A stretch of 64,000 nucleotides of DNA from Patescibacteria group bacterium (GCA_016784145.1 JADHVF010000002.1:112357-176356), one strand, 5' to 3'. Shown: positions 6,957 to 64,000, counted from the stretch's first letter. Notes: generated from the sequence alone by a model not told the origin. A program made the numbers and translations.

Positions 6957-6966
6957 GAAATTATCC

Positions 6967-39499: not shown

Positions 39500-39545
39500 A
39501 ATATAAAAACCAAACAAATATTTTTTTGTTTGGTTATTGGTTATT
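39500..39545. terminator. Bidirectional rho-independent terminator between the convergent recA and Wzz-like genes
   Basis: AACCAAACAAA-tatttt-TTTGTTTGGTT: an 11-bp perfect stem flanked by an A-tract 5' and a T-rich tract 3'. Confidence 0.5.
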
Positions 39546-39616: not shown

Positions 39617-40597
39617 TTATTCTTCTTCTTTTTTAAAATATTCAGATCCAAAGGCATAAAATATTCCTGCAAACAATCCTAGTATGCCTCCAATCATCAC
39701 ATTTTGCTGTTTTTTCGGGCTGATTGGTGTTTCGGGTAAACTTGCCTCTACTTCTACTTCAGTAGGCTTGACTTCATAATTCTTTTCATGTTGTTTTTGC
39801 TGAATATCTTGCTCCAAGCTGATAAGTTTTTGTTCTAGGGTTAATAATTGAGCTTCTTTGTTTTCTTTTTGGTTTTTAGCTCCGGCTAAAAGATTAATAT
39901 AGCTTTGAGCAATTCTACCTTGTCCATCAGAATAAGCATTATTTCTTTTGTTAATTTCTTCTTCATATTTTTTGATATCTTGATCTAATCTCTCTAAGTC
40001 GGCTGTTGTTTTAACTTTGTCTTTATCTATTTTAGCTTTATCTAACTCAATTACACGTAATTCAGTATCAAGTGTTTTAGCTGCTTGAGCAAACATGTTT
40101 TCATGATAGGTTAACAAAATATCAGTCACAACCTTAACAATACTAACAGCTTTAGTAGGCGTATTGCTTTTCCCAATTATTTGAATGAATTGTGATTCTT
40201 GTTTGCCTTGATTAGGGTTGGCTATTTCAATCATTGATTTAATGTCATTGGTTGTTGATTGTTCTGAAAAATCAGTTGATGCTTGTAATTTGGTTCTTAT
40301 TTGTTTCAAGACAGTGTCTGTATTAAAGACGGATTTAATGTCTTCAAACTCTTGCAAGGTGGCATAAGAAAATCCTTTTTCTTTAGAAAGATAATTTTTG
40401 TTTTTGCCAATTTTAACTAAATTGCTGGCTTGATAAATAGGCGAGAGCATAAAACTAATTACAATAGAGATAATAATAGCAATTAAAAATATGCTTATAA
40501 TCTCTTTTTTTCTTTTTATAATGACATTAACATAATCTCTTAAGTCAATTTCATCTTCATGATATTGATTGTCTTGATCTTGATTTTCCATATTCAT
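39617..40597 (-). CDS. Polysaccharide co-polymerase / chain-length determinant (Wzz-like, PCP family)
   Basis: N-terminal TM helix, a long coiled-coil periplasmic region, and a C-terminal Gly-rich TM (VMIGGILGLFAGIFYAFG). Confidence 0.55.
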   Translation of the reverse strand: MNMENQDQDNQYHEDEIDLRDYVNVIIKRKKEIISIFLIAIIISIVISFMLSPIYQASNLVKIGKNKNYLSKEKGFSYATLQEFEDIKSVFNTDTVLKQIRTKLQASTDFSEQSTTNDIKSMIEIANPNQGKQESQFIQIIGKSNTPTKAVSIVKVVTDILLTYHENMFAQAAKTLDTELRVIELDKAKIDKDKVKTTADLERLDQDIKKYEEEINKRNNAYSDGQGRIAQSYINLLAGAKNQKENKEAQLLTLEQKLISLEQDIQQKQHEKNYEVKPTEVEVEASLPETPISPKKQQNVMIGGILGLFAGIFYAFGSEYFKKEEE

Positions 40598-40645
40598 ATA
40601 TTCTTATTATATTTATTATTTCTCTGTTTGTCAATATGCTGTTTT

Positions 40646-42520
40646 TTATTTAATATCAAGCAATTCTTTCATTTTTTTAACATCCATGTCTGCTAATGAT
40701 TGCTTTAATTCTTGTATTAGTTCTTTTATTTTAGTTTCATTAACTTTTTCAAGATGAGAAATAAATATTTTTTCATGCTTGGTTGGCTTTTCTTTGTCAA
40801 TCAGGATTTCTTCAAAAAGTTTTTCCCCCTGTCTAATCCCGCTATAAATAACAGGGATATCAATATCCGGTTCATAGCCAGCTAATTTAATCATTTCTTT
40901 GGCCAAATCAACAATTTTAATGGCTTGTCCCATGTCTAGTACAAAAACTTCACCACCTTGTCCAATTGCGCCTGACTGCATTATTAATAGACAAGCTTCA
41001 GCAGTAACCATAAAATATCTTTTCATCTCAGGATGAGTTACTTCAACTGGCCCACCTGTTTTGATTTGATTTTCAAATATTTTAACAACATTCCCTTGAG
41101 AGTCAAGAACATTTCCAAAGCGAACAGCAGAAAATTTTGTTTGGTTTTTGCTATTTAAACAGACACATATCATTTCACATATTCTTTTACTAGCTCCCAT
41201 TACAGAGGTTGGATTAATTGCTTTGTCAGTAGAAACCATTACAAATTTTTCAATTTTATTTTTAATAGAAGCTTGACCAACAGTTAAAGTACCAAAAATA
41301 TTATTTTTAATAGCTTCGTCCGGGTTTGATTCCATCATTGGTACATGTTTGTAGGCAGCTGCATGAAATACTATCTCTGGTTGATGTTTTTTAAATACAT
41401 TGTTAATTTTATTTTTATCACAAATATCAGCAATAATAAATATTTTACTGGCATCAGGGAATAATCTGTTTAATTTTTTTTCTAAATAAAATATAGCTGT
41501 TTCTCTTTGGTCTAAAGCTATTATTTTTTTAGGAGCAAATTTAATAATTTCTTCACATAACTGAGAGCCAATCGAACCAGCTGCTCCTGTTATTAAAATA
41601 GTTTTGTTGTTGATATAAGATTGGATTGCTTGAGTATCAATTTTTACTGGTTGACGTCCTAACAGGTCTTCAATAGAGATTTCTCTCAAATCTTTTAAGC
41701 TAATCTTTTCATCTAAAATTTCAGCCGTGCTAGGCAAGATTTTAATTTTTTGAATGCCTGCTTCGCGGCTAAGATTAACAGTATTTTTAATTATTTTTTT
41801 AGAAGCAGATGGCAAAGCAATTATTATCTCTTTTATTTGATGTTTTTTAATAATAACAGGTATATTTTTAATTCTTCCCAAAACTTTTATGCCATGAATT
41901 AATATATTTTGTTTCATGTGGTTGTCGTCAACAAATCCAACTGGCAGATAGGGGGTATTACCAGAAACAGTAATATGACGGGCTAATTGTTCGCCAGCTT
42001 CTCCAGCTCCGACAATAAGAACACGCTTCCCATTTTTTTTATTATTTGTCACCCCATTTTTAAATAAATGAGCATAAACTCTTTTAGCAAACCTAAATCC
42101 GCCAGTAGTTAGCAGACATAAAAACCCAGACACAAAGATAATTGAACGGGGAAAGCCGGTAAAGATTGTTTTGTCTCTAAAAATAAATAAAATGGCTCCA
42201 ATTGTTAAAAAGCCAATCATTACTGCTCTGAATAATTTTAATAATTCTCTAATGCTTATAAATGACCATGAAATAGAATAAAGTTTTTCCAGCGAAAATA
42301 AAAAAAGAATTATAGGCAAGCTCATGGCCACAAACCCTTTAATCATGGTATAATATTCAATAGGAATTTTTCCATCAAATCGTAATAAAAATCCTAAATA
42401 ACAAGCTAAAGAAATTAGAATAATATCAGTTACAACAAAAAAAATAGTTCTTTTTAAAGTTGTTCTTTCCCAAATTTTATCTTTTATTGTCATAAAATTT
42501 TTGAATTGATTTAATAACAT
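40646..42520 (-). CDS. Membrane-bound UDP-sugar 4,6-dehydratase/epimerase (CapD/PglF/WbpM family)
   Basis: N-terminal TM helices, two Rossmann folds (VLIVGAGEAGEQL, ILITGAAGSIGSQLCEEI), and SDR catalytic residues. The probable start is the Met at 42493. Confidence 0.85.
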   Translation of the reverse strand: MLLNQFKNFMTIKDKIWERTTLKRTIFFVVTDIILISLACYLGFLLRFDGKIPIEYYTMIKGFVAMSLPIILFLFSLEKLYSISWSFISIRELLKLFRAVMIGFLTIGAILFIFRDKTIFTGFPRSIIFVSGFLCLLTTGGFRFAKRVYAHLFKNGVTNNKKNGKRVLIVGAGEAGEQLARHITVSGNTPYLPVGFVDDNHMKQNILIHGIKVLGRIKNIPVIIKKHQIKEIIIALPSASKKIIKNTVNLSREAGIQKIKILPSTAEILDEKISLKDLREISIEDLLGRQPVKIDTQAIQSYINNKTILITGAAGSIGSQLCEEIIKFAPKKIIALDQRETAIFYLEKKLNRLFPDASKIFIIADICDKNKINNVFKKHQPEIVFHAAAYKHVPMMESNPDEAIKNNIFGTLTVGQASIKNKIEKFVMVSTDKAINPTSVMGASKRICEMICVCLNSKNQTKFSAVRFGNVLDSQGNVVKIFENQIKTGGPVEVTHPEMKRYFMVTAEACLLIMQSGAIGQGGEVFVLDMGQAIKIVDLAKEMIKLAGYEPDIDIPVIYSGIRQGEKLFEEILIDKEKPTKHEKIFISHLEKVNETKIKELIQELKQSLADMDVKKMKELLDIK

Positions 42521-43601
42521 ATTTCACTTGAGAAATAGTTAATTCTGGATACATTGGCAAAGACAATACTTGTTTACATATTTCTTCTGTTTTTGATAAA
42601 TATATCTTGTTTGGCATTAAAATAGGCTCTTTGTAAGTAGGGGCTGGCCAGGAAATCAATGTTTCTATTTTGGCTTCTTTGTCCAGATATTTTTTTAATT
42701 TGTCTCTATTAGTTGATTGAATAACATAATTTTGCCAGACATCAAAAAATTTTGAATCTTCAAAATTAGGAGTATTTATTTCTGAAATATCTTTTAATCC
42801 ATCATTATATAGTTTGGCAATTTGTTGTCGTTTTTTTATCCATGTTGGCAGATATTTTAATTTAATATCCAGTAATCCTGCTTGAACATTGTCTAATAAG
42901 GCAGTATAGCCATGAAAGTAAAACTTTCTGTTTTGTCTATCTTCGCCATTATAGCGTAATAGACGTATTTTCCTAGCGATTTTATCGTCATTGGTTGTAA
43001 CCATACCAGCATCACCAAATGCCCCGAGCATTTTAAATGGATACATTGAAAAGCAGCCTGTTATTCCGAATGTGCCAGCTTTTTTCCATTTATTTTTAAT
43101 TTTCATTTTAGCTCCAATTGCTTGGGCAGCATCTTCGACAACTATTAAATTATATTGCTTAGCAATTTTCATTATTTTTTCCATATCACACATCCTTCCA
43201 TTTAAATGGACAGGCAGAATAGCTTTTGTTTGTTTTGTTATGTTCTTGACTATTAAATCAGTATTCATATTGAAATCTTCGCCAACATCAATAAGTTTTG
43301 CTTCAGCATTTTGATGATAAATACAAGAAATACTAGCCATAAAAGTATGTCCAACAGTAATTACTTTGTCTTGCTTTTTTAGTCCAACTGCTTCCAGGGA
43401 AAGGGTTAGTGCATCTGTTCCAGAATTAACACCAATAGCATGCTTAACACCAATATATTTAGCAAAGTTTTTTTCAAATTTGACTAAATCTTGTCTCATA
43501 ATTAAATCTCCTCTTGAGAAAATATCATCAATTTTCTTAAGAAATTTTTTGCGATGGTCTTTGTATTGTTTTTCAGGATTAACAAATCGTACTTTATACA
43601 T
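42477..43601 (-). CDS. DegT/DnrJ/EryC1/StrS-family PLP-dependent sugar aminotransferase
   Basis: Family-typical N-terminus ...GVKHAIGVNSGTDALTLSL and the Lys-containing motif; 374 aa. Confidence 0.88.
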   Translation of the reverse strand: MYKVRFVNPEKQYKDHRKKFLKKIDDIFSRGDLIMRQDLVKFEKNFAKYIGVKHAIGVNSGTDALTLSLEAVGLKKQDKVITVGHTFMASISCIYHQNAEAKLIDVGEDFNMNTDLIVKNITKQTKAILPVHLNGRMCDMEKIMKIAKQYNLIVVEDAAQAIGAKMKIKNKWKKAGTFGITGCFSMYPFKMLGAFGDAGMVTTNDDKIARKIRLLRYNGEDRQNRKFYFHGYTALLDNVQAGLLDIKLKYLPTWIKKRQQIAKLYNDGLKDISEINTPNFEDSKFFDVWQNYVIQSTNRDKLKKYLDKEAKIETLISWPAPTYKEPILMPNKIYLSKTEEICKQVLSLPMYPELTISQVKYVIKSIQKFYDNKR

Positions 43602-43603
43602 AA

Positions 43604-44602
43604 TTATTTTAATAATTGTTTTACTTTTTTAATAATATCTTTGTAGGTTGTGTAATATTTCTTTTCAAGAGGGGCACTGGTTGGGGCAGGAGAATCAGGC
43701 AAGCAGACTCTTTTGATTGGTTTTTTTAGATACTTGAATCCTTTATCAGCAACCAAAGCAGAAATCTCTCCAGCAACTCCGCCAGTAAGCCAGGCTGCCT
43801 CAGCAATAATTAATTTCCCTGTTTTTTTAATAGAATTAATAATAATTGGGAGGTCTATTGGTTTAACAGTTCTGATATCAATTATTTCAGCATCAATTTT
43901 ATATTTTTTTAATTCTTCGCCTGCTTTTATGGCTTCATTGGCCATATACGATATTCCAACAATTGTGATATCTTTGCCTTTTTTTCTTATTACCCCTTTT
44001 CCAATTGGAACAGAGTATATTTTTTTTGGAACATTTTCTTTCAGTCCATAAAGCCATCTATCATCAATATATACTACAGGATTATTTGATTTAATGGCTG
44101 ATATCATTAATCCTTTAGCATCATATGGAGTAGCTGGCATTACAACTTGTAGTCCAGGAATATGAGCAAATAAAGATTGGAGTGCTTGAGAATGTTGGGC
44201 TCCTTGTTCACCTCCACGATTAATAATAGGCCAAATTACAACTGATGCGGTTGATTGTCCACCAAAAATATAGTCCCAATTAGCCGCTTGGTTTATTATT
44301 GGGTCTAATCCATAAATCATAAAATCCATTCTTGGATGAACTACAATTGGTCTCATGCCAGCAATACTTGCTCCAATGCCAGCTCCAGTAATAGCATTTT
44401 CAGAAACAGGTGTATCAATTACTCGTTCTTCTCCGTATTTTTCTAATAACCCATTACAAGTATTTCCAACATACCAGGGGCTTTTAACTCCTTGTCCAAT
44501 TAAAAAGACAGATTTGTCTTGACCCATTGCCTGATGGATTGCTTCATTAATTGCCAAACTATAAGTTAATAATCTTTGGTTTTTTTTATTTTTCATATAC
44601 AT
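43604..44602 (-). CDS. Thiamine-diphosphate-dependent 2-oxoacid dehydrogenase E1 beta-like subunit (transketolase pyrimidine-binding plus C-terminal domains)
   Basis: Transket_pyr motifs (VFLIGQGV, GIGASIAGMRPIVV) and a C-terminal transketolase_C fold. It is adjacent to an E1 alpha-like gene. Confidence 0.8.
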   Translation of the reverse strand: MYMKNKKNQRLLTYSLAINEAIHQAMGQDKSVFLIGQGVKSPWYVGNTCNGLLEKYGEERVIDTPVSENAITGAGIGASIAGMRPIVVHPRMDFMIYGLDPIINQAANWDYIFGGQSTASVVIWPIINRGGEQGAQHSQALQSLFAHIPGLQVVMPATPYDAKGLMISAIKSNNPVVYIDDRWLYGLKENVPKKIYSVPIGKGVIRKKGKDITIVGISYMANEAIKAGEELKKYKIDAEIIDIRTVKPIDLPIIINSIKKTGKLIIAEAAWLTGGVAGEISALVADKGFKYLKKPIKRVCLPDSPAPTSAPLEKKYYTTYKDIIKKVKQLLK

Positions 44603-45563
44603 GTTTTAATAATTCTCCTTGTTTTGGAAAATCACTTTTAAGTGTTAATTTATATGCTTTAATAATTTTTGAATTTAATTTTTTATATATATTGTTAATT
44701 GTTTGTTTGTTTAAAATATTTTTTTTCATTAATATTTTCTCAAAATTTTTAATTGGATCTTTTTTAGCCCATTTAATAACTTCTTTATTTGGTCTAATAT
44801 CAGTGTGTTCTCCTTGGATATTGTCATCAGGGCCAACATGTCCTCTCATTCGATATGTTAAGCACTCAATAAAAGAAGGCCCTTGGTTATTTTTGGCATA
44901 CTTTACCATGGTTTTAGTTGTGTTATAAACTTTTAAGACATCATTCCCTTGTACTTGTTTGGAAGGCATGTTATATGACTTGGCAAATTCATAGATTTTA
45001 GTATTAGCCAGACAATCTTTTATTGGCATGTGAGTTGAATATAGGTTATTTTCACAAACAAAAATAATTGGCAATTTTTTTAAAGAAGCAAAGTTTAATG
45101 ATTCATGTAAGACTCCTTCATCAACTGCTCCGTCGCCAAAAAAACTAATTGTTACTTTTTTGTCTTTGTTTATTTTTGATGATAAAGCTGCACCCAAAGC
45201 AAGCGAAATTGTAGCAGCTACCAACGGAACTGTTCCTAATAATCCGTGCTGGTTGTCAATTATATGCATTGACCCTCCTCTTCCTTTTGCACAGCCATCT
45301 TTTTTTCCAAAAATTTCAAGCATTAATTTATCAATGCTTCCTCCTTTGGCCAGATAATGTCCATGAGACCGATGATTTCCAAGAATATAATCATTGTCTG
45401 TTAAAGCAGCACAAACGCCAACAGCAACTGCTTCTTGTCCTGTATATAAATGGCAGGGAGTTTTAATTTCGCCTCTTAGAATTGGATCAACTAGACTTTC
45501 TTCAAACAACCTTATTTCTACCATTTTTTTATATAATTTTAATAAAAATTTTTTGTTTTCCAT
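44586..45563 (-). CDS. Thiamine-diphosphate-dependent 2-oxoacid dehydrogenase E1 alpha-like subunit
   Basis: E1_dh motifs GQEAVAVG, NHRSHGH, FFGDGAVDEG...LPIIFVCENNLYS (ThDP-binding GDG...N). Confidence 0.82.
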   Translation of the reverse strand: MENKKFLLKLYKKMVEIRLFEESLVDPILRGEIKTPCHLYTGQEAVAVGVCAALTDNDYILGNHRSHGHYLAKGGSIDKLMLEIFGKKDGCAKGRGGSMHIIDNQHGLLGTVPLVAATISLALGAALSSKINKDKKVTISFFGDGAVDEGVLHESLNFASLKKLPIIFVCENNLYSTHMPIKDCLANTKIYEFAKSYNMPSKQVQGNDVLKVYNTTKTMVKYAKNNQGPSFIECLTYRMRGHVGPDDNIQGEHTDIRPNKEVIKWAKKDPIKNFEKILMKKNILNKQTINNIYKKLNSKIIKAYKLTLKSDFPKQGELLKHVYEK

Positions 45564-45564
45564 A

Positions 45565-46158
45565 TTAATTTTTGATAATTTTTTTAATTGTTTTGAAAAT
45601 TATTTTTAAATCATTTAAAAATGACATTTGTTTGACATATTTTATTTGTAGTTTAACTTTTTTTGGTCTTATTTCTTCTAAATAAGTTTTTTCAGGGTCA
45701 TGGCTATTTTTTAAGATTTCTCCTTCATTAGAATTCCATAATGATGCCAAGTCAGTTATTCCTGGTCTTATATTAAAGATAATTTGTTCGTCCTCTTTAT
45801 ATAGTTTAGCATATTCAGGCACTTCTGGTCTAGGGCCAACCAAGCTCATTTCTCCCTTAATTACATTAAATAACTGAGGAAGTTCATCAATTTTGTATTT
45901 TCTTAAAAATTTTCCTGTTTTAGTTAATCGTATGTCATTATTAGGAGTCGAAGGCCCTCCTATTTTATTAGCATTTAAAACCATTGTACGAAACTTATAA
46001 ACATTAAATGGTTTTTTATTTTTACCAATACGAATTCCTTTATAAATAACAGGGCCATTAGATGTTATTTTTATTAGCATTGTAATGATAATAAAAACAG
46101 GGGATAGAATAATTATCCCTATTAAGGAAAAACAAATATCAAAAATTCGTTTAATCAT
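45565..46158 (-). CDS. Small monotopic phosphoglycosyl transferase (Bac_transf family, PglC/WbaP C-domain-like); probably the initiating sugar-1-P transferase
   Basis: N-terminal re-entrant helix and the conserved MSLVGPRPE / ...RPG.T motifs. Confidence 0.85.
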   Translation of the reverse strand: MIKRIFDICFSLIGIIILSPVFIIITMLIKITSNGPVIYKGIRIGKNKKPFNVYKFRTMVLNANKIGGPSTPNNDIRLTKTGKFLRKYKIDELPQLFNVIKGEMSLVGPRPEVPEYAKLYKEDEQIIFNIRPGITDLASLWNSNEGEILKNSHDPEKTYLEEIRPKKVKLQIKYVKQMSFLNDLKIIFKTIKKIIKN

Positions 46159-46934
46159 TTTTTTGAAAAAATAAAGACAATCTTAAAAGCATATTTTTTA
46201 ATCCAGTTATTTTTTAATAATATATAATCTATTTTATCTAAAAATTTGAATATTTTTTTCCCTATTAAAAAATTTCTAAATGGGAACAAAAACATTGCTA
46301 ATAAATGAAAATAAGATATTTTTTCTATATTAAAATATTTTTTAGCAAATTTTAAATCTTTGTCTTTAATAATATGCTCCACTGCCCACTTGGTTCTAAT
46401 TCCTCTTTTTTTATTTAGCCATCGCTTTATATTTATTAAGGGGTTATGTCCAAAGGTTTCTATGCCAATTAATTTTCCATTTGATTTTAAGATTCTATTT
46501 AATTCAGGGAATGCTTTTTTTATATTAAGAGAAGAAAATGTCCCTCCATCCCATATAATATCAAAATAATTATCAGGAAATTCAGTCTTTTCGCAATCTC
46601 CTTTAATAAATTTTATTTTGTGGTTTATTTTTTCTTGTTCGGCTCTTTTTTTTGCGATTTGTAATGATTTGTTTGATAAATCAATACCATAAACTTTTGC
46701 TCCTAATTTTGCCAGCAAAATAGAATGCATGCCATGCCCACAACCATAATCTAAGATTTTCATATTAGAAGTGATATTTTGTTTCAACCAGTTTTTACAA
46801 AAATTATAACTTAAAAGCATGTTAATATTATAATTTTCAATATCTTTGTCCCAGTTATTTTTATTTTTTTTCTTGATCCATCTTTCAGATAATTTTTCAT
46901 AGTGAGAAATTTCCTCTTTTTTTCTTTGTTTCAT
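46155..46934 (-). CDS. Class I SAM-dependent methyltransferase (paralog A)
   Basis: SAM motif ILDYGCGHG...GAKVYGIDLS. The C-terminal half is paralogous to the ORF at 48220-49002 (shared EFPDNYFDII, RTKW..H...K). Confidence 0.8.
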   Translation of the reverse strand: MKQRKKEEISHYEKLSERWIKKKNKNNWDKDIENYNINMLLSYNFCKNWLKQNITSNMKILDYGCGHGMHSILLAKLGAKVYGIDLSNKSLQIAKKRAEQEKINHKIKFIKGDCEKTEFPDNYFDIIWDGGTFSSLNIKKAFPELNRILKSNGKLIGIETFGHNPLINIKRWLNKKRGIRTKWAVEHIIKDKDLKFAKKYFNIEKISYFHLLAMFLFPFRNFLIGKKIFKFLDKIDYILLKNNWIKKYAFKIVFIFSKK

Positions 46935-46938
46935 TTTT

Positions 46939-48210: not shown

Positions 48211-48219
48211 ATTATTTTT

Positions 48220-49002: not shown

Positions 49003-49006
49003 ATTT

Positions 49007-50011: not shown

Positions 50012-50013
50012 AT

Positions 50014-52261: not shown

Positions 52262-52262
52262 T

Positions 52263-54263: not shown

Positions 54264-54267
54264 AATT

Positions 54268-55554: not shown

Positions 55555-55564
55555 AAAATACTTT

Positions 55565-56122: not shown

Positions 56123-56127
56123 TTTTA

Positions 56128-57081: not shown

Positions 57082-57087
57082 ATCTTT

Positions 57088-58050
57088 TTATTTGTTTAAA
57101 TATTTTTTAAGCCAATTAATAGTTGTTTTTAATCCTTTCTCAAAGTTAGTATTAAAATTGAATCCTAATTTTTTTAATTTAGAGTTATCAATGTCAAATA
57201 TTTTTATGTCTCCGGGAGTCCATTCAGTATATTTAATTTTTAGATCAGATTTATTTAGTTGGTTTAATATTTTATCAGCTAATTCTTTAATTGTTACTTT
57301 GATGCCAGAGGCACAGTTATAAACTTCTCCTTTGGTTTCTTTTTTCTGAGCAACTAAAAGGTTAATAGCAGCGATATCTTTAACATAGGTAAATGATCTT
57401 TGCTGTGTTCCATCTCCAAAAATAATAGGGGGTTGATTGTTTAGTGCTTTTCGTCCGAAAATAGATACAACTCCACCAACATCACTAGATTCTTGTCTAG
57501 GCCCATAAACATGGAAATAACGAAGAATCGTAATATCCATATTATAAAGATGCTCAAATGCTTTGGCATATCTTTCTCCTGCTAATTTGCTCACCCCATA
57601 ATATGAGGTTGGATTTAATGGGTGCTTTTCATCTTGAGGAAAATATTGCGCTTCTCCATAAACTGAACCAGTTGAGGCATGTACAACTTTTTTTACTCCA
57701 AAATCTCTGGACAATTCTAATATATTAAAAGTCCCTTTTCCATTAACTTCAAGATCTCTTCTAGGGTCTTTTAGACAAATCGTTTTTTTAGAAGCCGCTT
57801 CATGAAAGACGATGTCAATATTTTTAAAATATTTTTTTAAATTATTATAATCAGTTACATCACATTTTACAGCTTTAAATAATTTATTGTCTTTAAATTT
57901 ATTCAAGTTTTCTTTTTTACCAGCGCTGTAATCATCAATACTAATAACTTGTACTCCTAGATTTAGAAGTTCTTCAATTATATGACTACCAATAAATCCT
58001 GCTCCGCCAGTCACAATTGCTTTTTTATAAAGAAATTTTATTTTTTTCAT
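57088..58050 (-). CDS. NAD-dependent nucleotide-sugar epimerase/dehydratase (SDR, GalE/UXS-like)
   Basis: AIVTGGAGFIGSH, the YxxxK catalytic motif (YGVSKLAGE), about 320 aa. Confidence 0.85.
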   Translation of the reverse strand: MKKIKFLYKKAIVTGGAGFIGSHIIEELLNLGVQVISIDDYSAGKKENLNKFKDNKLFKAVKCDVTDYNNLKKYFKNIDIVFHEAASKKTICLKDPRRDLEVNGKGTFNILELSRDFGVKKVVHASTGSVYGEAQYFPQDEKHPLNPTSYYGVSKLAGERYAKAFEHLYNMDITILRYFHVYGPRQESSDVGGVVSIFGRKALNNQPPIIFGDGTQQRSFTYVKDIAAINLLVAQKKETKGEVYNCASGIKVTIKELADKILNQLNKSDLKIKYTEWTPGDIKIFDIDNSKLKKLGFNFNTNFEKGLKTTINWLKKYLNK

Positions 58051-58053
58051 AGT

Positions 58054-59172
58054 TTATTTTAATAATTTTTTATATACTTTTAATAATTTTTTGCTTTCTT
58101 TCTCCCAATTATATCTTTTTAAAATAGCTTTTTGTCCATTTTCTCTCATTTGTTTTGCTTGTTCTGGATGTTTTATGAAATGTTCAATTGTCTCAGCAAT
58201 TTTTTTAGGTTTTTTTGGATCAACACAAAACCCACAATCATTTTTTTCTATAATTTCTTTCCATAAGGGAAAATCAGATGCAATTATTGGCAATTTATTT
58301 ATCATATATTCAAAAATTTTATTTGGGATTGCATTAATGTGATTTGGTTCAGGGAGAAAACAGATAAGACCTATATTAGCATTATTCATGTGTTGATATG
58401 CTTTTTTTTGAGGTAAGAACCCTAAGAAGTTGATACTATTCCATTCTGCCATACTCTTAATCTCTTCTTCAAACTTTTTTTCAGAAAATTTACCAATTAA
58501 TGTTAATTTTACATTATATTTAGAATTAATATACTTTAAAGATTTAATAATTTTTTTAATTCCTCTTTCTTTTGACAAACCACCAACATAAATCAATTCA
58601 ATATATTTTTTTGAGTTTGCTTCTTTTTTCTTTTCTTCTTTTGGAAATAAAGAAAGAATAGGATAATTTTTAATATCAATTACATTATTTTGTTTAAAAT
58701 TACTTTTAATATTTGGTGTAGCAGTGATAATATAATCTAATTTTTTAGATACCCATTTTTCAAATAAATTAAATAAATTAGAAATTATTTTTCTAAATAT
58801 TTTAGGAATCCAATGTTTAGATAAAATTTGTTTAGTAACATCTTCATGAACATCGTAAATTATTTTTGCTTCTGTTTTCTTTTTTAGTTTTAGCATCCAT
58901 GGCAATAATTCTGGATCATGAAAATGATATATATCTGCTTTTTGTTTTAAGGCTTTTCTATAGGTTAAATAATCTAGTTTTAAAAATCTTTTAATTCTGT
59001 TTCTAGATTTTGGAATAGCAATTATTTTTATTTTATCTATTGTTTCATTTTTATTATGCTGGGCGATTAAAGTAACATTGTAACCTGAATTAACTAATGT
59101 TTTAGTTTGTTTATAAAAAATTCTTGTATCAAGCAAAGGATGAACAGACGTAAGAATGCAAATTTTATTCAT
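58054..59172 (-). CDS. GT-B fold glycosyltransferase, family 4
   Basis: C-terminal EX7E-type motif region (E..NHINAIPNKIFEYM...LPIIASD). Confidence 0.8.
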   Translation of the reverse strand: MNKICILTSVHPLLDTRIFYKQTKTLVNSGYNVTLIAQHNKNETIDKIKIIAIPKSRNRIKRFLKLDYLTYRKALKQKADIYHFHDPELLPWMLKLKKKTEAKIIYDVHEDVTKQILSKHWIPKIFRKIISNLFNLFEKWVSKKLDYIITATPNIKSNFKQNNVIDIKNYPILSLFPKEEKKKEANSKKYIELIYVGGLSKERGIKKIIKSLKYINSKYNVKLTLIGKFSEKKFEEEIKSMAEWNSINFLGFLPQKKAYQHMNNANIGLICFLPEPNHINAIPNKIFEYMINKLPIIASDFPLWKEIIEKNDCGFCVDPKKPKKIAETIEHFIKHPEQAKQMRENGQKAILKRYNWEKESKKLLKVYKKLLK

Positions 59173-60445
59173 ATTTTCTATTTAAGTTTTCTTTTGGTAA
59201 TAAATATAATAATAATAAAGCGAGTAAAAGGCCGTGCGTGATAAAGGCAGTAAGCAAAGCTGTTCCTCGGATGGATAATATAAATGTTGCCAGAACTGCC
59301 ATTACTACTTTAATATTTTTTTTATAAGAAATATTGTCTATTAATTTTAGGATAAATGATAATATTATAGCCCATAACAGCATGCCTAAAAATCCAAAAT
59401 TTATGTATCCATCGCTAATAATTCCATTATTGGGATTACCTGCTGGGTTGCTTAAGTAGTTTTTTGCTATAAGTTTCGAGGGAGATAATTCATATGGATA
59501 ATTTATGAAATTTTGAAAAAAGTGATGCTGAGAAAGATATGTATATGGATTTTCTGAAAAAAAATCATAGTAAAAAAATGATAATTGTGCTGGCACTAGT
59601 AAACTTCGTCGTATAGCAAAAGAAGGGGGTAAGAGGTCATTTGTTGTGTAATAAATTAGTACACTTAACAATATTAATCCGATCAAGCTAATTGTTATTC
59701 TTGAATAAAAGTTTTTTTTATTTAAAGCCCAAATTAATACTAATATAAATGGTAATATGAATAAATATAATTTATTTCCTGTTCCAGAAAATAACAATAT
59801 TTGAAGCAATGTGGTTAATATAAGTAATCCCCATTTTTTTTTAATTAAAAATATTGTAAAAAATAAAGGTCCTATAATTTTTGCAAACCAATTTAATGTA
59901 TAATTAGCAAGTAAGACATGTAGATTAGCATAGCTAGAGCGTATTTCATATACATTTCTGATATTAAAATTTATTTGGAATCCTAAGTATTTATAAATAA
60001 AAATAAAAGATAAAGTTGAAATAATGATAAATATTGTCCATATAATAGCTTTAGATTGTTTTATTTTTTTAATATTTAATTTAAGAGGGATAGCTTGTAT
60101 TATCAAAGAAATTATTATCCAGAAAAAAGTGGAGGCATACATAAAGATTCTTGATTCATCCATTAGGCAGAAAAGAGTAAGCATTGGAATATAAGATATT
60201 AAAAATAGCATCCATAAAATTATATGAGATGGTTTTTTTGTTTTTTTAGGAATGAGAACAAAAACAATGAAAAGTAATAAATATGATTCAATTAATTTAA
60301 AAGAATTAGGTTGAAATACAAACTTAGAGTAAGCCCAAAAAGGAGAAATAATCAAATAATAGGATAGATCTAAAATAACTCTATAAATAATTATAAGAGT
60401 AAATATTTTTATTTTGTTTTTTTTAATTACTAATGCTTTTAGCAT
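59165..60445 (-). CDS. O-antigen polymerase/ligase-like polytopic membrane protein (Wzy-like)
   Basis: More than ten TM helices, a large loop near the C-terminal third, and a neighbouring wzx and GTs. No enzymatic motifs can be assigned. Confidence 0.5.
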   Translation of the reverse strand: MLKALVIKKNKIKIFTLIIIYRVILDLSYYLIISPFWAYSKFVFQPNSFKLIESYLLLFIVFVLIPKKTKKPSHIILWMLFLISYIPMLTLFCLMDESRIFMYASTFFWIIISLIIQAIPLKLNIKKIKQSKAIIWTIFIIISTLSFIFIYKYLGFQINFNIRNVYEIRSSYANLHVLLANYTLNWFAKIIGPLFFTIFLIKKKWGLLILTTLLQILLFSGTGNKLYLFILPFILVLIWALNKKNFYSRITISLIGLILLSVLIYYTTNDLLPPSFAIRRSLLVPAQLSFFYYDFFSENPYTYLSQHHFFQNFINYPYELSPSKLIAKNYLSNPAGNPNNGIISDGYINFGFLGMLLWAIILSFILKLIDNISYKKNIKVVMAVLATFILSIRGTALLTAFITHGLLLALLLLYLLPKENLNRKYE

Positions 60446-61811
60446 CTTTATTTATTTTATTTATTGGAATAACCAAATATTTTTCTTTTGAGATTAATTT
60501 ATAAAAATTTTCAAAGAGTCTTTTCCATTTAGGCGTGAATAATTCAGTCATATAACAATTATGCCAAAGAAAAACAAAAATACCGTTATAATTTTTAGTC
60601 TGATTCAATAATTTAATTATTTCTTTAAAAGCCTCAGAATAAGATAATTTTTTATTGTCTAGAGTTCCATCCATAACAATTAATGGAATTTCCCAAATAT
60701 TTATAACTTTTTTTTTCAAAATATTGAAAGGCTTAAATGGATAACATACTCCACATCTGAATCCATTAAAATTTGCATAACATAATGTTGTGTCATATTT
60801 TAAGTCTGCATTTTCCCATGTTTCCCAACTTTTTGGTCCAGCCCATTTTAGATAATGTTGTCTGCCGCTAGTAATTTTTTTGTTGATAATTTTTTCAAAT
60901 TCTATTTTTTCTTTCTTTATAATTTTTGGATTATTATAGGCCCTGAATCCTGTCTGAATTCCTATTTCAAATTTTTCTTTTTTTAATTTTGCAATTATTT
61001 TTTTTAAAATAGGATTTGATAATAAATATCTTTTATTATCAGTCATAAAATAAAAAGATGATTTAAATTTGTATTTTTTTTCTAAATTGATTATATAATT
61101 TAGAAAAATATCATGGTATGGATCGTTTTTTAGTTTTATTTTTACTTTAATATAATCAAACAAAATTTTTATTAATTTTTTAAAAGCCAATTTTTTAATT
61201 GTTTTTTTAATGGCAATTAGTGGTGGATACCATTTATATCTATCAATTTCATCAACATCATGAGTTAGACAAATAGTAAATTTTCTTTTCTTTCTTGTTT
61301 GTTTTATTTTTAAAAATTTTAACATATTCCAGAGCATTTCTGTATATTCATTTGTTATTGGTCTATGCAAAAATTTTTGTTTATAGGCTAGTGATTCTGT
61401 TGGTATAAATCTGTTATATTTATCTCGTTTTTTTATAACATATTCTTCCCATCTAGTAAGCATAAAAAAACAAGAAGCAAATATATCTATTTTGCAAATA
61501 ATTTTATTGTCAGATATTTCTAATGCATTGTCTCCATATATAATTGGTAAATTTTTTTTTGAGGCAAATTTATTATTGGATTTTTGAAGAGGTAATTGAG
61601 CTATATTTTGAGTAGATAAGTAATTTTGATTTTTAAAATTAGAAAAAAACGAATCCTTAATGATTAATTCTTTTTTGTTTCCTAAAATAATTTTATAATC
61701 GTTTTGATTGTAAGTTTCAATTTGATATTTTAATCCTAAAAATTCATTAAATAAGGTTGATATAATATATTTTCTTTCTGCCAAAAAATTGTTTGGGATT
61801 TTAATTATCAT
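60423..61811 (-). CDS. Hypothetical protein; the C-terminal half is possibly a divergent polysaccharide deacetylase/carbohydrate-esterase-like domain
   Basis: Weak NodB-like signatures (LTHDVDEID, GRQHYLKW, VFLWHN). Low confidence. Confidence 0.3.
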   Translation of the reverse strand: MIIKIPNNFLAERKYIISTLFNEFLGLKYQIETYNQNDYKIILGNKKELIIKDSFFSNFKNQNYLSTQNIAQLPLQKSNNKFASKKNLPIIYGDNALEISDNKIICKIDIFASCFFMLTRWEEYVIKKRDKYNRFIPTESLAYKQKFLHRPITNEYTEMLWNMLKFLKIKQTRKKRKFTICLTHDVDEIDRYKWYPPLIAIKKTIKKLAFKKLIKILFDYIKVKIKLKNDPYHDIFLNYIINLEKKYKFKSSFYFMTDNKRYLLSNPILKKIIAKLKKEKFEIGIQTGFRAYNNPKIIKKEKIEFEKIINKKITSGRQHYLKWAGPKSWETWENADLKYDTTLCYANFNGFRCGVCYPFKPFNILKKKVINIWEIPLIVMDGTLDNKKLSYSEAFKEIIKLLNQTKNYNGIFVFLWHNCYMTELFTPKWKRLFENFYKLISKEKYLVIPINKINKDAKSISN

Positions 61812-61822
61812 TATAGTATTAT

Positions 61823-62734
61823 TTATTTTTTAATTTTATATATGATCATGGATATTATTTGTTTTAAGGAATTATTTTTTATTTTATTCATTATATTATA
61901 AAAATTTACCATAATATAGTTTCCTTTAGAAAATGTCCATTTTAATCTACAGCTTTTGCATCCAGGGTTATAGCAAAGAATAAACTCAGGAGTTTTTAAA
62001 AGTTTGGTTATTTCTATCTTTAAAGTTTTTTTCATACTAGTTGTTTTTGCATAAGCATCTCCTAATTTTCCTTCAGATAAAATTGCATTAAAATTTTTAT
62101 ATAATGGCAAAAACTTTCTAAAACCAGAAACACATGCTTCTGGCCAATTAATTTTAAAAAGTTTAATATCACCATTTTTATTAATATAATTTATTCCTAA
62201 ATTGCGTTGTTTTTTTTGTTTTAACCCGGCTAATTTTATTGCTACATGAGTTGTCCCAACCCCGACTATCTTGTTATCTTTTCCTATATTTAAATTTTTT
62301 GCATTTTTATTTGACATTATCCGTAATGGATTATAAGCAAAATTATTTGCTGTATGATTTTGCATCAAGTTCTTGGCATCATGCCCTATTGCTACAAATT
62401 TTTGAATTGGGTGATGACTACGAAACATTTTTGGATGATTTACCATTGTATTAACAAATATTCCAGCATATGAATGTGTTTTATTGTTGCTAATTTTCTT
62501 CCAATTTTTCTTTGAAAGAGGGAGTTTATAGCAAGAAACAAAAGCTTCAGAGACAATGGTGCCCGTTTCTCCAATTATATCAAGAAGCGCTTCAATCAAC
62601 GTATTGGCCCCTCCTTTAATTGGTCCAATTGATTTCATTGAAACTTTCAGGTTAACTAGATCTCCCTTTTTGAGTCCTAAATTATATAGATCTTTTATTA
62701 TTGTTTCCTTGTTATGTTTATGTTTTTGTTTCAT
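61823..62734 (-). CDS. AAC(3)-family (aminoglycoside 3-N-acetyltransferase-like) acyl-CoA N-acyltransferase
   Basis: The N-terminus LYNLGLKKGDLVNLKVSMKSIGPIKGGANTLIEALLDIIGETGT matches the Antibiotic_NAT (PF02522) signature. Confidence 0.7.
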   Translation of the reverse strand: MKQKHKHNKETIIKDLYNLGLKKGDLVNLKVSMKSIGPIKGGANTLIEALLDIIGETGTIVSEAFVSCYKLPLSKKNWKKISNNKTHSYAGIFVNTMVNHPKMFRSHHPIQKFVAIGHDAKNLMQNHTANNFAYNPLRIMSNKNAKNLNIGKDNKIVGVGTTHVAIKLAGLKQKKQRNLGINYINKNGDIKLFKINWPEACVSGFRKFLPLYKNFNAILSEGKLGDAYAKTTSMKKTLKIEITKLLKTPEFILCYNPGCKSCRLKWTFSKGNYIMVNFYNIMNKIKNNSLKQIISMIIYKIKK

Positions 62735-63644
62735 TATTTTTTCTATAATTTTGAAAAGAAATTATTGCTTTGTGCTTGTTAATTGTTTTCTTTGCTTTTT
62801 CAATTGTTGGTGGAGAAATAAAAATATTATTATATACTGCTATGCCTCTATTTGTTTTTATTGCTCTGTTGTGTAATTTAATAATTTCTTGAGCTTCTGT
62901 TATTTCTTTTTTTGAAGGAGTATATAGTTTTTCTACTATTGGAATTTCGCGAGGAGACATGACTAACATGCCTTCGAATCCTACTTGTTTTGCTTGTTTA
63001 ATATGTTCTTTTAGGCCTTCAAAATTACCTATATCAACATAAGGTGTATCAATTGCTGATATTTTTGCTGCTTTGGCAGCCATAGAAATCATGTGTCTTG
63101 GGACTAATATTGATGTTCCGATAGAATTATGTTCACCTTCTGTTTCTTGCAAAAAATCTTCACTCCCAAAAAGGAGTCCTTTTATTCTGGGTGACGAAAA
63201 AGCTATGTTATAAACATCAAGGACAGCTTCAGGAGTCTCAATAAGCGCTATAATATTAAAGTATCCTATAGGCAGTTTTAACTCTTTTTCTTTGGTGGCC
63301 AATTTTTCACTGAATAATTTAATGCATTTTGTATTATAGATTTTTGGGAATACAAATCCAGTAAGATTTTTAGATGCTATAGCATTTATGTCTTTTGACA
63401 AAAAGCCACTTTCTATTGAATTGACCCTAACATAAATTGGCCGATTATCTACAATATTAGATTCTAGGACTTTTTTGATCATTTTCCTTGCTTTGCTTTT
63501 ACTGTTTTTAGGAGTTGCATCTTCAAGGTCCAGAACCACTACATCTGCATTAGTAGAAAATGCTTTTTTAATGTATTTTTCATTATGCCCAGCACTGAAT
63601 AAAAGGGTTCTTATTATTAATTTTTTTGAATATTTTTTTTTCAT
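62718..63644 (-). CDS. HpcH/HpaI aldolase / citrate lyase beta subunit (CitE)-like (acyl-CoA lyase family)
   Basis: IRTLLFSAGHNEKYIKKAFSTNADVVVLDLEDA matches the CitE N-terminal motif (R..L.VPG........KA....AD.V..DLEDA); about 300 aa TIM barrel. Confidence 0.7.
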   Translation of the reverse strand: MKKKYSKKLIIRTLLFSAGHNEKYIKKAFSTNADVVVLDLEDATPKNSKSKARKMIKKVLESNIVDNRPIYVRVNSIESGFLSKDINAIASKNLTGFVFPKIYNTKCIKLFSEKLATKEKELKLPIGYFNIIALIETPEAVLDVYNIAFSSPRIKGLLFGSEDFLQETEGEHNSIGTSILVPRHMISMAAKAAKISAIDTPYVDIGNFEGLKEHIKQAKQVGFEGMLVMSPREIPIVEKLYTPSKKEITEAQEIIKLHNRAIKTNRGIAVYNNIFISPPTIEKAKKTINKHKAIISFQNYRKNNETKT

Positions 63645-63650
63645 AATTTT

Positions 63651-63995
63651 TTATTTATTTTTTTTAGAAATCAATATTGTTCTTTCAAATGTTAGTACTT
63701 CTTTATTTTTTTGATTATATGCTGATGTTTTAATATGTATAATCCCTCTGTCATTCTTGCTTTTTGACTTTCTTTTTTTTAGCACAGTTGACTTTGCTTT
63801 TATTGTGTCATTAATAAATACAGGATGTTTATGTATTATTTTGTCATAGCTTAAATTAGCAATAGCTTTACCACTTATATCCCTTACAGACAATCCAACA
63901 GTTAAGGAGAAAATCAGTGTTCCGATAACAAGAATTTGTTTATGTTGTGATAATTTTGCGTATTCAATATCAAGATGTATTGGATGATGATTCAT
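63651..63995 (-). CDS. MaoC-like (R)-specific enoyl-CoA hydratase / hotdog-fold dehydratase (possibly N-terminally truncated by the window edge)
   Basis: NHHPIHLDIEYAKLSQHKQILVIG.L matches the MaoC-dehydratase motif (N..HLD..YA..S.FG..IAHG). Confidence 0.6.
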   Translation of the reverse strand: MNHHPIHLDIEYAKLSQHKQILVIGTLIFSLTVGLSVRDISGKAIANLSYDKIIHKHPVFINDTIKAKSTVLKKRKSKSKNDRGIIHIKTSAYNQKNKEVLTFERTILISKKNK

Positions 63996-64000
63996 TGTTA

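Follow-up and report, generated by a model that had tools for sequence, protein, structure and literature searches.

The O-specific antigen of Pseudomonas aeruginosa PAO1 contains ManNAc3NAcA, its 3-acetamidino form ManNAc3NAmA, and FucNAc, and requires wbpA, B, D, E, G, I, L and M (bioRxiv 10.1101/2020.05.27.113977). In Porphyromonas gingivalis, Wbp enzymes make UDP-GlcNAc3NAcA, from which the CE4 enzyme VimE removes the 2-N-acetyl group and to which VimA adds a serine or glycine, and this Wbp/Vim sugar is the linking sugar of anionic lipopolysaccharide (A-LPS) in both P. gingivalis and Tannerella forsythia (PMC7468200). A third point of reference comes from the AviB1/AviB2 and Pau11/Pau12 pairs, which resemble the E1 component of pyruvate dehydrogenase (PDH) and are proposed to transfer a C2 unit from pyruvate onto C-4 of a 4-keto sugar (PMC4425429, PMC4753412). 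Here we describe a surface-polysaccharide locus in a 64,000-nucleotide stretch of DNA from a Patescibacteria group bacterium, a stretch referred to throughout as the window. The Patescibacteria, also called the Candidate Phyla Radiation (CPR), are ultrasmall, mostly uncultured bacteria with reduced genomes. We interpret the region from position 39617 to the window end as the 3′ four-fifths of a long-resident, Wzx/Wzy-dependent locus for a cell-envelope heteropolysaccharide, comprising 29 genes and 30.9 kb when complete, in an uncultured CPR bacterium, and we put the probability of this interpretation at about 0.75. Judged by its gene families it belongs to a familiar class of Wzx/Wzy surface-polysaccharide loci, most similar in content to the P. 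aeruginosa O5 wbp cluster and the Wbp/Vim pathway, and what is new is the host lineage and the combination of cassettes.

Comparison with described systems

Like the PAO1 wbp cluster, the locus has the components of a Wzx/Wzy/Wzz-dependent pathway and WbpA/B/D/E-type enzymes for a 2,3-diacetamido uronic acid, together with a WbpI-type 2-epimerase, a WbpG/WbuX-type amidotransferase, a membrane-anchored WbpM/PglF-type 4,6-dehydratase and GT4 glycosyltransferases. Three features set it apart: CPR hosts are generally regarded as lacking an outer membrane and lipopolysaccharide; the initiating enzyme here is a small PglC-type phosphoglycosyltransferase (PGT), whereas WbpL is a WecA-family enzyme; and glutaminase and amidotransferase form one fusion protein, in place of the separate HisH/HisF-like partners of PAO1. 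The locus also goes beyond the wbp cluster in having a deacetylase/re-acylation cassette, PDH-E1-like alpha and beta subunits, a class-I aminotransferase, methyltransferases, and a module composed of a GtrB-like enzyme and a GT-C glycosyltransferase.

The likeness to the Wbp/Vim pathway lies in the Wbp set plus a CE4-fold deacetylase encoded by g20 (209 bits against the VimE model, below its equivalog cutoff); genes are numbered g1–g29 up the plus strand from g1 at 39617, and are transcribed in the order g29 to g1. There is, however, no FemAB-like VimA; an AAC(3)-fold transferase, a CoA-ester lyase and a hydratase are present here, and an ATP-grasp enzyme in closer CPR relatives. The locus also differs from the Wbp/Vim system in having no WbpS-type AsnB, no type IX secretion system (T9SS) and no sortase. 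The polyprenyl-phosphate-sugar-synthase-like GT2 enzyme g16 and the GT-C pair g12/g11, for which ArnT is the best structural match, resemble the Gtr-type and ArnC/ArnT-type modules, but there is no GtrA-type small flippase, and the GT-C is divided between two open reading frames (ORFs) and carries an extra C-terminal domain. The presence of E1 alpha and beta without E2 or E3, among sugar-tailoring genes and near a 4,6-dehydratase, recalls AviB1/AviB2 and Pau11/Pau12, a likeness of setting and not of sequence comparison with AviB1/B2, and the genes belong to a polysaccharide locus here and to antibiotic clusters there.

Extent and packing of the locus

An earlier reading made from the window sequence alone (the sequence-only reading) had described positions 39617–63995 as a 23-gene locus on one strand, probably a single operon read from 63995. 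The ORF listing of the window does give exactly 23 ORFs in this interval, all on the minus strand, but the locus continues beyond it. The HpcH-family protein encoded by g22 is found identical on 12 public contigs, the longest of which among those displayed is a 124-kb ENA contig (L001) that differs from the window at one of 11,283 overlapping bases; on L001 the minus-strand run goes on for 6.5 kb and six genes (g24–g29), with gaps of −20 to +57 nt. The complete co-directional run comprises 29 genes in 30.9 kb (window-equivalent 39617–70475). The MaoC-family gene g23 is cut at the window end, such that its Pfam match begins at profile position 31, and the full gene encodes 158 residues on the source contig, with a start at window-equivalent 64127, 127 nt past the window end. 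Beyond g29 on L001 there is a 74-nt divergent gap, then a gene for a 663-residue membrane protein with Wzy_C and TPR regions, and then pgk.

The genes were also said to be separated throughout by overlaps or by gaps of less than 10 nt, and this is true of 19 of the 22 junctions among g1–g23, the exceptions being 48 nt (g2/g1), 10 nt and 11 nt. Apparent overlaps of 44 and 88 nt between locus ORFs are artefacts of the choice of the longest ORF; g15 is called at 55565–56170 on L001. The median intergenic gap is 2 nt, compared to 10 nt across the 38 plus-strand housekeeping genes of the same window, and gaps of at least 40 nt occur at one of 22 junctions in the glycan locus versus 10 of 37 in the housekeeping run. 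The glycan locus is therefore more tightly packed than its local background. The long same-strand run is not itself special in this window, because the whole left 39 kb (1–39340, with about 38 housekeeping genes) is a single plus-strand run. Significant Pfam or NCBIfam matches to glycan or sugar-tailoring families were found for 22 of the 23 ORFs, and the features of the locus are collected in Table 1.

Table 1. Features of the glycan locus, in order along the plus strand of the window and then outside it (L001, 124-kb source contig; TM, transmembrane segments)
Feature	Position	Strand	Basis or remarks
Bidirectional hairpin terminator	39508–39535	both	11-bp stem AACCAAACAAA/TTTGTTTGGTT, T-runs on either strand
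g1, Wzz/PCP chain-length regulator, 326 aa	39617–40597	−	PF02706 46 bits (cutoff 25.5)
Perfect sigma-70 consensus promoter, TTGACA-17-TATAAT	40606–40634	−	in the 48-nt g2/g1 gap, the sole real intergenic gap
g2, membrane-anchored PglF/CapD/WbpM-type UDP-HexNAc 4,6-dehydratase, 624 aa	40646–42520	−	PF02719 364 bits, plus CoA_binding_3
g3, DegT-family sugar aminotransferase	42477–43601	−	PF01041 312 bits
g4 (PDH-E1 beta) and g5 (PDH-E1 alpha), thiamine-diphosphate enzyme pair	43604–45563	−	NF006667 309 bits and TIGR03182 320 bits, both just under cutoff
g6, small PglC-type polyprenyl-phosphate phosphoglycosyltransferase, initiating enzyme, 197 aa	45565–46158	−	PF02397 211 bits (cutoff 27)
g7 SAM methyltransferase, g8 class-I/II PLP aminotransferase (423 aa), g9 SAM methyltransferase	46155–49002	−	family matches
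g10, GT2 glycosyltransferase	49007–50011	−	PF00535 90 bits, C-terminal TM helices; 59–62% identical in L087/L088
g12 (51239–52261) and g11 (50014–51246), GT-C-fold glycosyltransferase in two ORFs	50014–52261	−	8-nt overlap ATGAATAA
g13, class-II glutaminase fused to WbuX/WbpG-type "N-acetyl sugar amidotransferase"	52263–54263	−	GATase_7/6; TIGR03573 142 bits (cutoff 203), residues 309–652
g14, Wzx-type flippase	54268–55554	−	PF01943 54 bits (cutoff 28.2), about 11 TM
g15 hexapeptide O-acetyltransferase (WcaF/WbbJ-like) and g16 polyprenyl-phosphate-sugar-synthase-type GT2	55565–57081	−	family matches, TM prediction
g17 SDR epimerase/dehydratase and g18 GT4 glycosyltransferase	57088–59172	−	family matches
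g19, candidate Wzy polymerase, 12 TM	59165–60445	−	TIGR04370 "oligosaccharide repeat unit polymerase" 38.4 bits (cutoff 40)
g20, DUF7033/VimE-like CE4-fold sugar N-deacetylase	60423–61811	−	PF23019 106 bits
g21 AAC(3)-fold N-acyltransferase, g22 HpcH/CitE/RipC-like acyl-CoA lyase, g23 MaoC/RipB/Ich-like enoyl-CoA hydratase	61823–64000	−	family matches
g24, MurJ	L001 7915–9504 (window-equivalent 64141–65730)	co-directional	TIGR01695 324 bits (cutoff 235)
g25, WecB-type 2-epimerase	outside window, L001	co-directional	family match
g26, GalE/TviC-like epimerase	outside window, L001	co-directional	family match
g27, WbpD-like LbH N-acetyltransferase	outside window, L001	co-directional	LbH match
g28, WbpB-like GFO_IDH_MocA oxidoreductase, 264 aa	outside window, L001	co-directional	full length versus Campylobacter blaseri homolog
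g29, WbpA-like NDP-sugar 6-dehydrogenase	outside window, L001	co-directional	TIGR03026 449 bits
Wzy_C + TPR membrane protein, 663 aa, 12 TM, C-terminal TPR repeats	L001 1104–3095	−, divergent from operon start	candidate ligase or O-oligosaccharyltransferase

The Wzx/Wzy core

The gene content expected of a Wzx/Wzy-type pathway, as proposed in the sequence-only reading, is borne out: there is a PGT (g6), GT2 (g10, g16) and GT4 (g18) glycosyltransferases, a Wzx (g14), a Wzz (g1) and a Wzy candidate (g19, just short of its model cutoff). The PGT has one N-terminal hydrophobic helix and is 73% identical to its counterpart on a related CPR-type contig (L087, described below). The Wzz protein has partial matches to TIGR01006 and TIGR01005 and a GNVR match of 25.8 bits (cutoff 27.7), and its TM segments at approximately residues 25–51 and 300–318 bracket a coiled-coil region. 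The GT4 enzyme g18 has 39–66% identity to its counterparts in related cassettes.

The putative polymerase g19 has no Pfam match, and we rejected its membership in the Wzy_C family, the hhalign probability being 1.4%. A gene of the g19 type always follows the deacetylase gene, while other loci place an unrelated Wzy_C protein there; on the strength of the family assignments this exchange is the non-orthologous replacement typical of Wzy polymerases. The product of g24 scores above the MurJ cutoff, and could be the flippase used by this locus or, alternatively, a conserved anchor adjoining a variable island. A MurJ gene 69–70% identical to g24 flanks the related loci on L087, L088 and L093, and a MurJ-family gene also adjoins that on L089; no separate Wzx is present on the sequenced stretch of L087 or L088. 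No LCP gene was seen in the window.

Uronic-acid genes and the predicted deacetylation/re-acylation cassette

At the family level the full WbpA/WbpB/WbpE/WbpD set is present, as g29, g28, g3 and g27, respectively. At only 264 residues g28 might be thought truncated, but this was rejected since it aligns end to end with its Campylobacter blaseri homolog, with internal deletions only. PDB matches of g3 include 7b0d, 5u1z and QdtB (3frk), and it matches WbpE (3nyu) with 186 bits, compared to 103 bits for the C-4 enzyme PglE (1o61); by these scores it is closest to the C-3 sugar aminotransferases and is likely the WbpE equivalent.

The deacetylase g20 has as its best NCBIfam match NF053580, VimE, "UDP-2,3-diacetamido-2,3-dideoxy-glucuronate deacetylase", for which the cutoff is 440 bits. 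An AlphaFold2 (AF2) model built from 46 homologs has a pLDDT of 92.5, and its top Foldseek matches are CE4 polysaccharide deacetylases and ArnD; the invariant columns include T183-H184-D185-x-D187 and several His and Arg residues. Its homologs number 1238 at E≤1e-5 and are distributed across Patescibacteria, Bacillota and Campylobacterota, with one in a Thermoproteota archaeon. Adjacent to it are g21, which has a PDB match to 6np1 (7e-12), and g22 and g23, and from their families we predict that g21, g22 and g23 together constitute a re-acylation module. No FemAB/GNAT-type protein resembling VimA is present in the locus, and the AAC(3)-fold g21 holds the adjacent position.

Other sugar-tailoring genes

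The CapD/PglF-like, DegT, epimerase and hexapeptide acetyltransferase functions that had been assigned from sequence all have corresponding family matches. The dehydratase g2 has N-terminal TM helices and additional partial matches to PseB and FnlA. Downstream of the PGT gene, g4 and g5 overlap or directly abut g6 and g3, and no E2 or E3 genes lie near them; E1 alpha matches a PDB PDH E1 alpha at 6e-47 and is 67% identical to a protein of L087 whose gene likewise directly follows the PGT gene. By analogy with the antibiotic enzymes, the pair are candidates for the addition of a two-carbon branch to a 4-keto sugar, although this is the least certain part of our assignments. The aminotransferase g8 is the best conserved of the locus genes in L087 (79% identity), and there too it is placed before the PGT gene.

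The amidotransferase g13 had been described as AsnB-like, but it has no Asn_synthase (PF00733) domain, as an AsnB/WbpS-type enzyme would require, and consists instead of a GATase region and a WbuX-type region; true AsnB types are present in L089 and L090. Its closest PDB match is 8wex (1e-13), and we predict from its family that it forms an acetamidino group. The notion that the fusion is rare was rejected, because g13-type fusions number 516 cluster representatives at E≤1e-30, well over a hundred of them full length.

A probable second lipid-linked module with a split GT-C

The suggestion that the locus includes a second lipid-linked module gains support from three observations: the closeness of the g16 sequence to Dol-P-Man synthase and to AglJ/PpgS, the GT-C fold of the g12 model, and the absence of the g17–g11 block as a unit from L087 and L088. 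The GT2 match of g16 is 85 bits, and its best NCBIfam matches, AglJ and PpgS, are far below their cutoffs; its closest solved relative is Dol-P-Man synthase 5mlz (3e-8). It has two C-terminal TM helices, but the combination of GT2 and C-terminal TM helices is also found in g10 and thus does not discriminate a GtrB/ArnC/DPMS type.

Pfam matches of g12 to GT87/PMT_2 are weak and below cutoff. Its AF2 model, built from 12 homologs, is of moderate quality (pLDDT 70.5, pTM 0.74), yet all of the top 21 Foldseek matches in the PDB are GT-C proteins, with ArnT 5ezm first (E 5.7e-4, TMq 0.60). In the first outer loop, T53, G56, W58-P59-W60-L61 and R63 are nearly invariant among the 12 homologs, while the Asp between L61 and R63 is not flagged as conserved. 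By itself g11 has no family match. In most relatives the counterpart of g12 and g11 is a single protein of 503–588 residues; residues 24–242 of g11 align with residues 365–583 of one of these (P0123, 588 aa) at 51% identity (2e-63), and the N-terminal part of P0123 aligns with g12, and therefore g12 and g11 correspond to one GT-C protein split into two ORFs. A frameshift, a sequencing error and a fresh pseudogene were each considered and rejected, as an identical 340-residue g12 is found on five contigs from several sources and a 64%-identical protein (P0122) ends at the same point; we read the arrangement as a stable two-piece gene. We also note a C-terminal extension of g11 of about 170 residues (approximately 243–410; 50014–50520), which the single-chain homologs lack and which matches no family. 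Beyond this split there is no sign of pseudogenisation in the locus.

Related loci

A comparison with related loci, which the sequence-only reading had put forward as a way to separate conserved from variable parts, does define a conserved frame and a set of swappable positions. Two CPR-type contigs, L087 and L088, have the order MurJ (70%), WecB (61%), a PfkB kinase, a methyltransferase and an ATP-grasp enzyme, DUF7033 (68%), a g19-type polymerase (63%), GT4 (66%) and g10 (59–62%); L087 then continues with a GNAT gene that is particular to it, g8 (79%), PGT (73%) and E1 alpha (67%), and L088 ends within g8. The loci on L089, L093 and L094/95 are variants of this arrangement. Relative to L087 and L088 the window locus has MaoC-HpcH-AAC(3) where the relatives have the ATP-grasp enzyme, an extra g17–g11 block (epimerase, polyprenyl-phosphate-type GT2, O-acetyltransferase, Wzx, amidotransferase and split GT-C), and two extra methyltransferases (g7 and g9). 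After its Bac_transf (PGT) gene, L093 (18162–20903) has an aldo-keto reductase and a transketolase split into N and C subunits, in the place taken by PDH-E1 alpha and beta in the window; L089 (20761–21434) has an aldo-keto reductase in the same place, beyond which the contig stretch stops. From these assignments, CPR glycan loci seem repeatedly to carry a two-subunit thiamine-diphosphate enzyme behind the gene for the initiating transferase.

The Wbp genes, DUF7033, polymerase, GT4, 2-epimerase and Bac_transf co-occur in other CPR contigs and in Campylobacter blaseri, whose locus (L090) contains WbpA-B-D-E, Wzx, AsnB, DUF7033, a polymerase, GT4 and a 2-epimerase. The complete MaoC-HpcH-AAC(3)-DUF7033 order is found in two more contigs, with identities of 63%, 50% and 47–53% for MaoC, HpcH and AAC(3). 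In L098 the order is Wzx, MaoC (63%), HpcH (50–51%), AAC(3) (53%), DUF7033 (41%), Wzy_C and GT4 (42%); this contig has 28% GC and OmpH and Por_Secre_tail neighbours, and is hence Bacteroidota-like. A 623-residue Wzy_C protein is encoded just upstream of the cassette. In L099 (54% GC), MaoC, HpcH, AAC(3) and DUF7033 lie beside WbpB-, LbH-, DegT- and WecB-type genes. Two Bacteroidales contigs, L096 and L097, have Wzx, AAC(3), DUF7033 and Wzy_C, and both adjoin an S8 peptidase with a T9SS Por_Secre_tail; in L096 (11125–12021) the Wzy_C gene after DUF7033 is cut to 152 residues beside a DDE transposase, whereas the otherwise identical L097 has an intact 420-residue gene. A scan of metagenome contigs with g8 gave two distant matches only (29–33% identity). 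Because these cassettes recur in other contigs, the enzymes that had appeared non-canonical belong to cassettes that are recurrent and mobile and are not peculiar to this genome, and the unusual composition attributed to the locus is not supported.

Transcription signals and base composition

The 3′ end of the locus is marked by the bidirectional terminator, which sits in the junction between the convergent recA (plus strand, ending at 39340) and wzz (minus strand, ending at 39617); internal terminator-like hairpins are no more common than in shuffled sequence, and all lie inside genes. Promoter-like sites in general were given no weight, and only perfect matches were used; the counts of such sites were not above those of shuffled sequence in two scans of the window, and numbered 75 upstream on L001 versus 59.3 ± 7.0. 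Only two perfect TTGACA-N17/18-TATAAT sequences occur in the 64 kb, with 0.10 expected. One of these (7930–7959, plus strand) is upstream of tuf (8035–9240), which suggests that the consensus marks strong promoters in this host, and the other is in the g2/g1 gap, with its −10 box ending 8 nt ahead of the wzz ATG, such that a wzz mRNA from it would be nearly leaderless. It thus seems probable that wzz has its own promoter besides any read-through, and the presence of a perfect consensus promoter inside the locus departs from a single operon devoid of internal promoters. The description as one operon read from 63995 is therefore too simple, since the run begins 6.5 kb past the window and wzz has this promoter of its own, but there is no indication that the genes belong to several unrelated transcription units. 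Most likely, as judged from these signals, transcription starts in the 74-nt divergent gap upstream of the WbpA-like g29 and runs to the terminator, with an extra strong promoter at wzz.

Total GC is 0.270 in the locus compared to 0.304 in the rest of the window, with minima of 0.22–0.25 at 48–62 kb, and a horizontal origin might be proposed on these grounds. However, GC at third codon positions (GC3) is 0.185 in the locus and 0.188 in the housekeeping genes, and a horizontal origin was accordingly rejected. The drop in GC is confined to codon positions 1 and 2, and reflects amino-acid composition (many membrane and poorly conserved proteins) and not a foreign mutational background. With GC3 thus matching the housekeeping genes, nothing points to the locus having been acquired recently. 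Third-position GC skew on the coding strand is +0.31 in the left housekeeping genes and −0.125 in the glycan locus, and therefore the plus strand is G-rich at silent sites throughout the window; most likely the glycan locus lies on the lagging strand, head-on to replication.

Host and neighbouring genes

The small-genome, symbiont-like host that had been proposed fits the data, as proteins identical to those of the locus carry the NCBI annotation Patescibacteria group bacterium. Among GTDB species representatives, RecA is matched best by Ca. Paceibacter (67%, the maximum), Doudnabacteria, Saccharibacteria and "Patescibacteria group", and a scan of the same representatives gave no relative of the RodZ-like neighbour; the host is therefore a CPR bacterium without a close sequenced species representative. 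Glycan genes lie within 10 kb of recA in none of 80 recA loci of other genomes.

Several other genes of the window merit mention. AlaRS (23685–25496, plus strand) is a short, 603-residue form, and ComEC is split into two genes (5505–7866, plus strand), encoding a Competence/DUF4131 membrane part of 483 residues followed by a metallo-beta-lactamase-fold protein of 299 residues; both are consistent with a reduced CPR genome. A Shine-Dalgarno 4-mer core at −18 to −4 is present for only three of 60 window genes, and translation in this host seems for the most part to begin without Shine-Dalgarno pairing. Scanning the window for Rfam families and for tRNAs gave no match. Among the housekeeping genes, positions 21143–22231 (plus strand) encode a WecA/MraY-family polyprenyl-phosphate HexNAc-1-P transferase that matches the WecA and MraY models alike weakly; it may be either a divergent MraY or an additional candidate for the initiating step, encoded away from the locus. 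Between it and alaS (22270–23715, plus strand) lies a gene for a 481-residue protein with weak matches to TraD/VirD4-type coupling proteins and a C-terminal CxxC-x17-CxxC domain.

A proposed pathway

We propose that g29, g28 and g27, with g3, would make a UDP-2,3-diacetamido-2,3-dideoxy-hexuronic acid by the WbpA/B/E/D route, and that the epimerases g25, g26 and g17 would alter its configuration. By analogy with VimE and VimA, g20 would then strip one N-acetyl group and g21 would re-acylate the free amine, with a CoA thioester donor that may be supplied by the citramalyl/malyl-CoA-lyase-like g22 and the (R)-hydratase-like g23. Using glutamine, g13 would convert an N-acetyl group to an acetamidino group. 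In what is the least certain part of the scheme, g2 would make a 4-keto-6-deoxy-HexNAc, to which the E1 pair possibly adds a C2 branch from pyruvate, and/or which g8 may transaminate, and g6 would load the tailored g2-derived sugar onto undecaprenyl phosphate. The repeat unit would be extended by the GT4 g18 and the GT2 g10 and decorated by the methyltransferases g7 and g9 and the O-acetyltransferase g15; Wzx (g14) and/or the MurJ-like g24 would flip it, g19 would polymerise it, and Wzz (g1) would set the chain length. Outside the membrane, the split GT-C g12/g11 may add a side residue from a polyprenyl-phosphate sugar made by g16, and the divergently encoded Wzy_C-TPR protein is a candidate ligase.

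A number of points weigh against this interpretation. What the substrates and the acyl group are, and in which order the steps occur, is deduced throughout from assignments at the level of family and fold. There is one DegT gene for two pathways that would each normally need one, and this WbpE-like gene (g3) is 25 kb away from the other Wbp genes; g20 scores far below the VimE equivalog cutoff (209 versus 440 bits), and g19, which is unrelated to Wzy_C, falls just short of the TIGR04370 cutoff. There are two flippase candidates, one of which (g24) scores as a true MurJ and may be a plain housekeeping gene, and the E1 pair scores almost as genuine PDH E1. Moreover, the general view that CPR bacteria have no outer membrane bears on what the acceptor of the polymer might be.

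Alternative explanations

One could suppose that two or more glycan pathways lie end to end, a compact, lineage-typical one (MurJ-like flippase, Wbp, DUF7033, Wzy, GT4, g10, g8, PGT, E1) and an inserted g17–g11 module for a different polymer, particularly as L087 and L088 carry the first set in the same order but are without g17–g11, g9 and g7, the flippase could be either of two proteins, and wzz is served by a promoter of its own. We think this unlikely, however, as the g17–g11 block has neither an initiating transferase nor a polymerase of its own, the gaps at its borders are only 3 and 2 nt, and GtrB-type plus GT-C modules normally modify a main polymer and do not make a second one. Quite unlikely too, in our view, is that the product is a lipid-linked oligosaccharide for O-glycosylation of a surface protein, such as an S-layer protein or a pilin, transferred by the Wzy_C-TPR protein acting as a PglL-type oligosaccharyltransferase. 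Such a role would be in keeping with the location of this protein adjoining the operon start, with the 623-residue Wzy_C protein just upstream of the same cassette in L098, with the proximity of Por_Secre_tail proteins to the loci in L096–L098, and with the linking of proteins to glycan by the Wbp/Vim sugar in Bacteroidota (PMC7468200). But neither the window nor the 10 kb upstream encodes an S-layer protein, a pilin or a sortase-like protein, and Wzy and Wzz argue for a polymer and not a short oligosaccharide. The Wzy_C family does not tell a ligase from an oligosaccharyltransferase, and tblastn gave no match of the Wzy_C-TPR protein on L098 under the filters used, so that the two large Wzy_C proteins have no detectable similarity. 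The related proposal in the sequence-only reading, that the locus builds the S-layer or host-attachment glycan, finds no support, as the 74 kb examined contain no gene for an S-layer protein, an adhesin or an oligosaccharyltransferase; cultivated Saccharibacteria attach by means of type IV pili, which bind the cell-wall polysaccharide of the host (PMC11623550).

It is also conceivable that the region is a recently acquired foreign island in which the E1 alpha and beta, class-I aminotransferase, MaoC, HpcH and AAC(3) genes are unrelated metabolic or resistance genes lying there by chance. The lower total GC with its dips at 48–62 kb, the sharing of the cassette by a Bacteroidota-like contig and a 54%-GC contig, the E1 scores near those of true PDH E1, and the lack of recA-adjacent glycan genes in the 80 other genomes could all be taken this way, but GC3 is the same as in the housekeeping genes and the decrease falls on codon positions 1 and 2, the odd genes overlap or directly adjoin their glycan neighbours (−17 to +11 nt), the neighbourhoods MaoC-HpcH-AAC(3)-DUF7033 and g8-PGT-E1 alpha are kept across loci, and no E2/E3, mobile-element or tRNA genes are present. 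We consider this explanation very improbable, and favor a single long-resident locus for one cell-envelope heteropolysaccharide.

Implications

We offer one further suggestion tentatively, and regard it as somewhat doubtful: the MaoC-HpcH-AAC(3)-DUF7033 cassette may be an undescribed branch of the Wbp/Vim pathway, in which the 2-N-acetyl group of a 2,3-diamino uronic acid is swapped for a CoA-made C4–C5 hydroxy- or carboxy-acyl group of the malyl, citramalyl, mesaconyl or 3-hydroxybutyryl type, with the ATP-grasp enzyme of CPR relatives and the FemAB-like VimA of Porphyromonas being interchangeable at this position. The modified sugar could then be a handle linking surface proteins or the cell wall to the polymer, as in Bacteroidota. 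In the literature we found no description of AAC(3)/MaoC/HpcH or ATP-grasp alternatives to VimA or of DUF7033, and nothing specific on DUF7033/WbmS or on CPR glycan loci, and for this reason it is the AAC(3)/MaoC/HpcH re-acylation sub-pathway that holds discovery value, within what is not a new kind of system overall. The value of the locus is thus for enzyme discovery, including an AAC(3)-type sugar N-acyltransferase with its own CoA-ester supply, a fused glutaminase-amidotransferase, a split GT-C, and an E1-like pair that may branch a sugar.

With approximately 31 kb given over to a single decorated surface polymer, it is evident that envelope glycans are of importance to Patescibacteria. 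Across the related contigs there is a conserved frame of MurJ, deacetylase, polymerase, GT4, g10, g8, PGT and a thiamine-diphosphate enzyme pair, and within it three swappable positions: the re-acylating enzyme, the type of polymerase, and the block containing Wzx and the GT-C side-branch genes. Such a pattern would be expected of a surface antigen on which phages or hosts exert diversifying selection.

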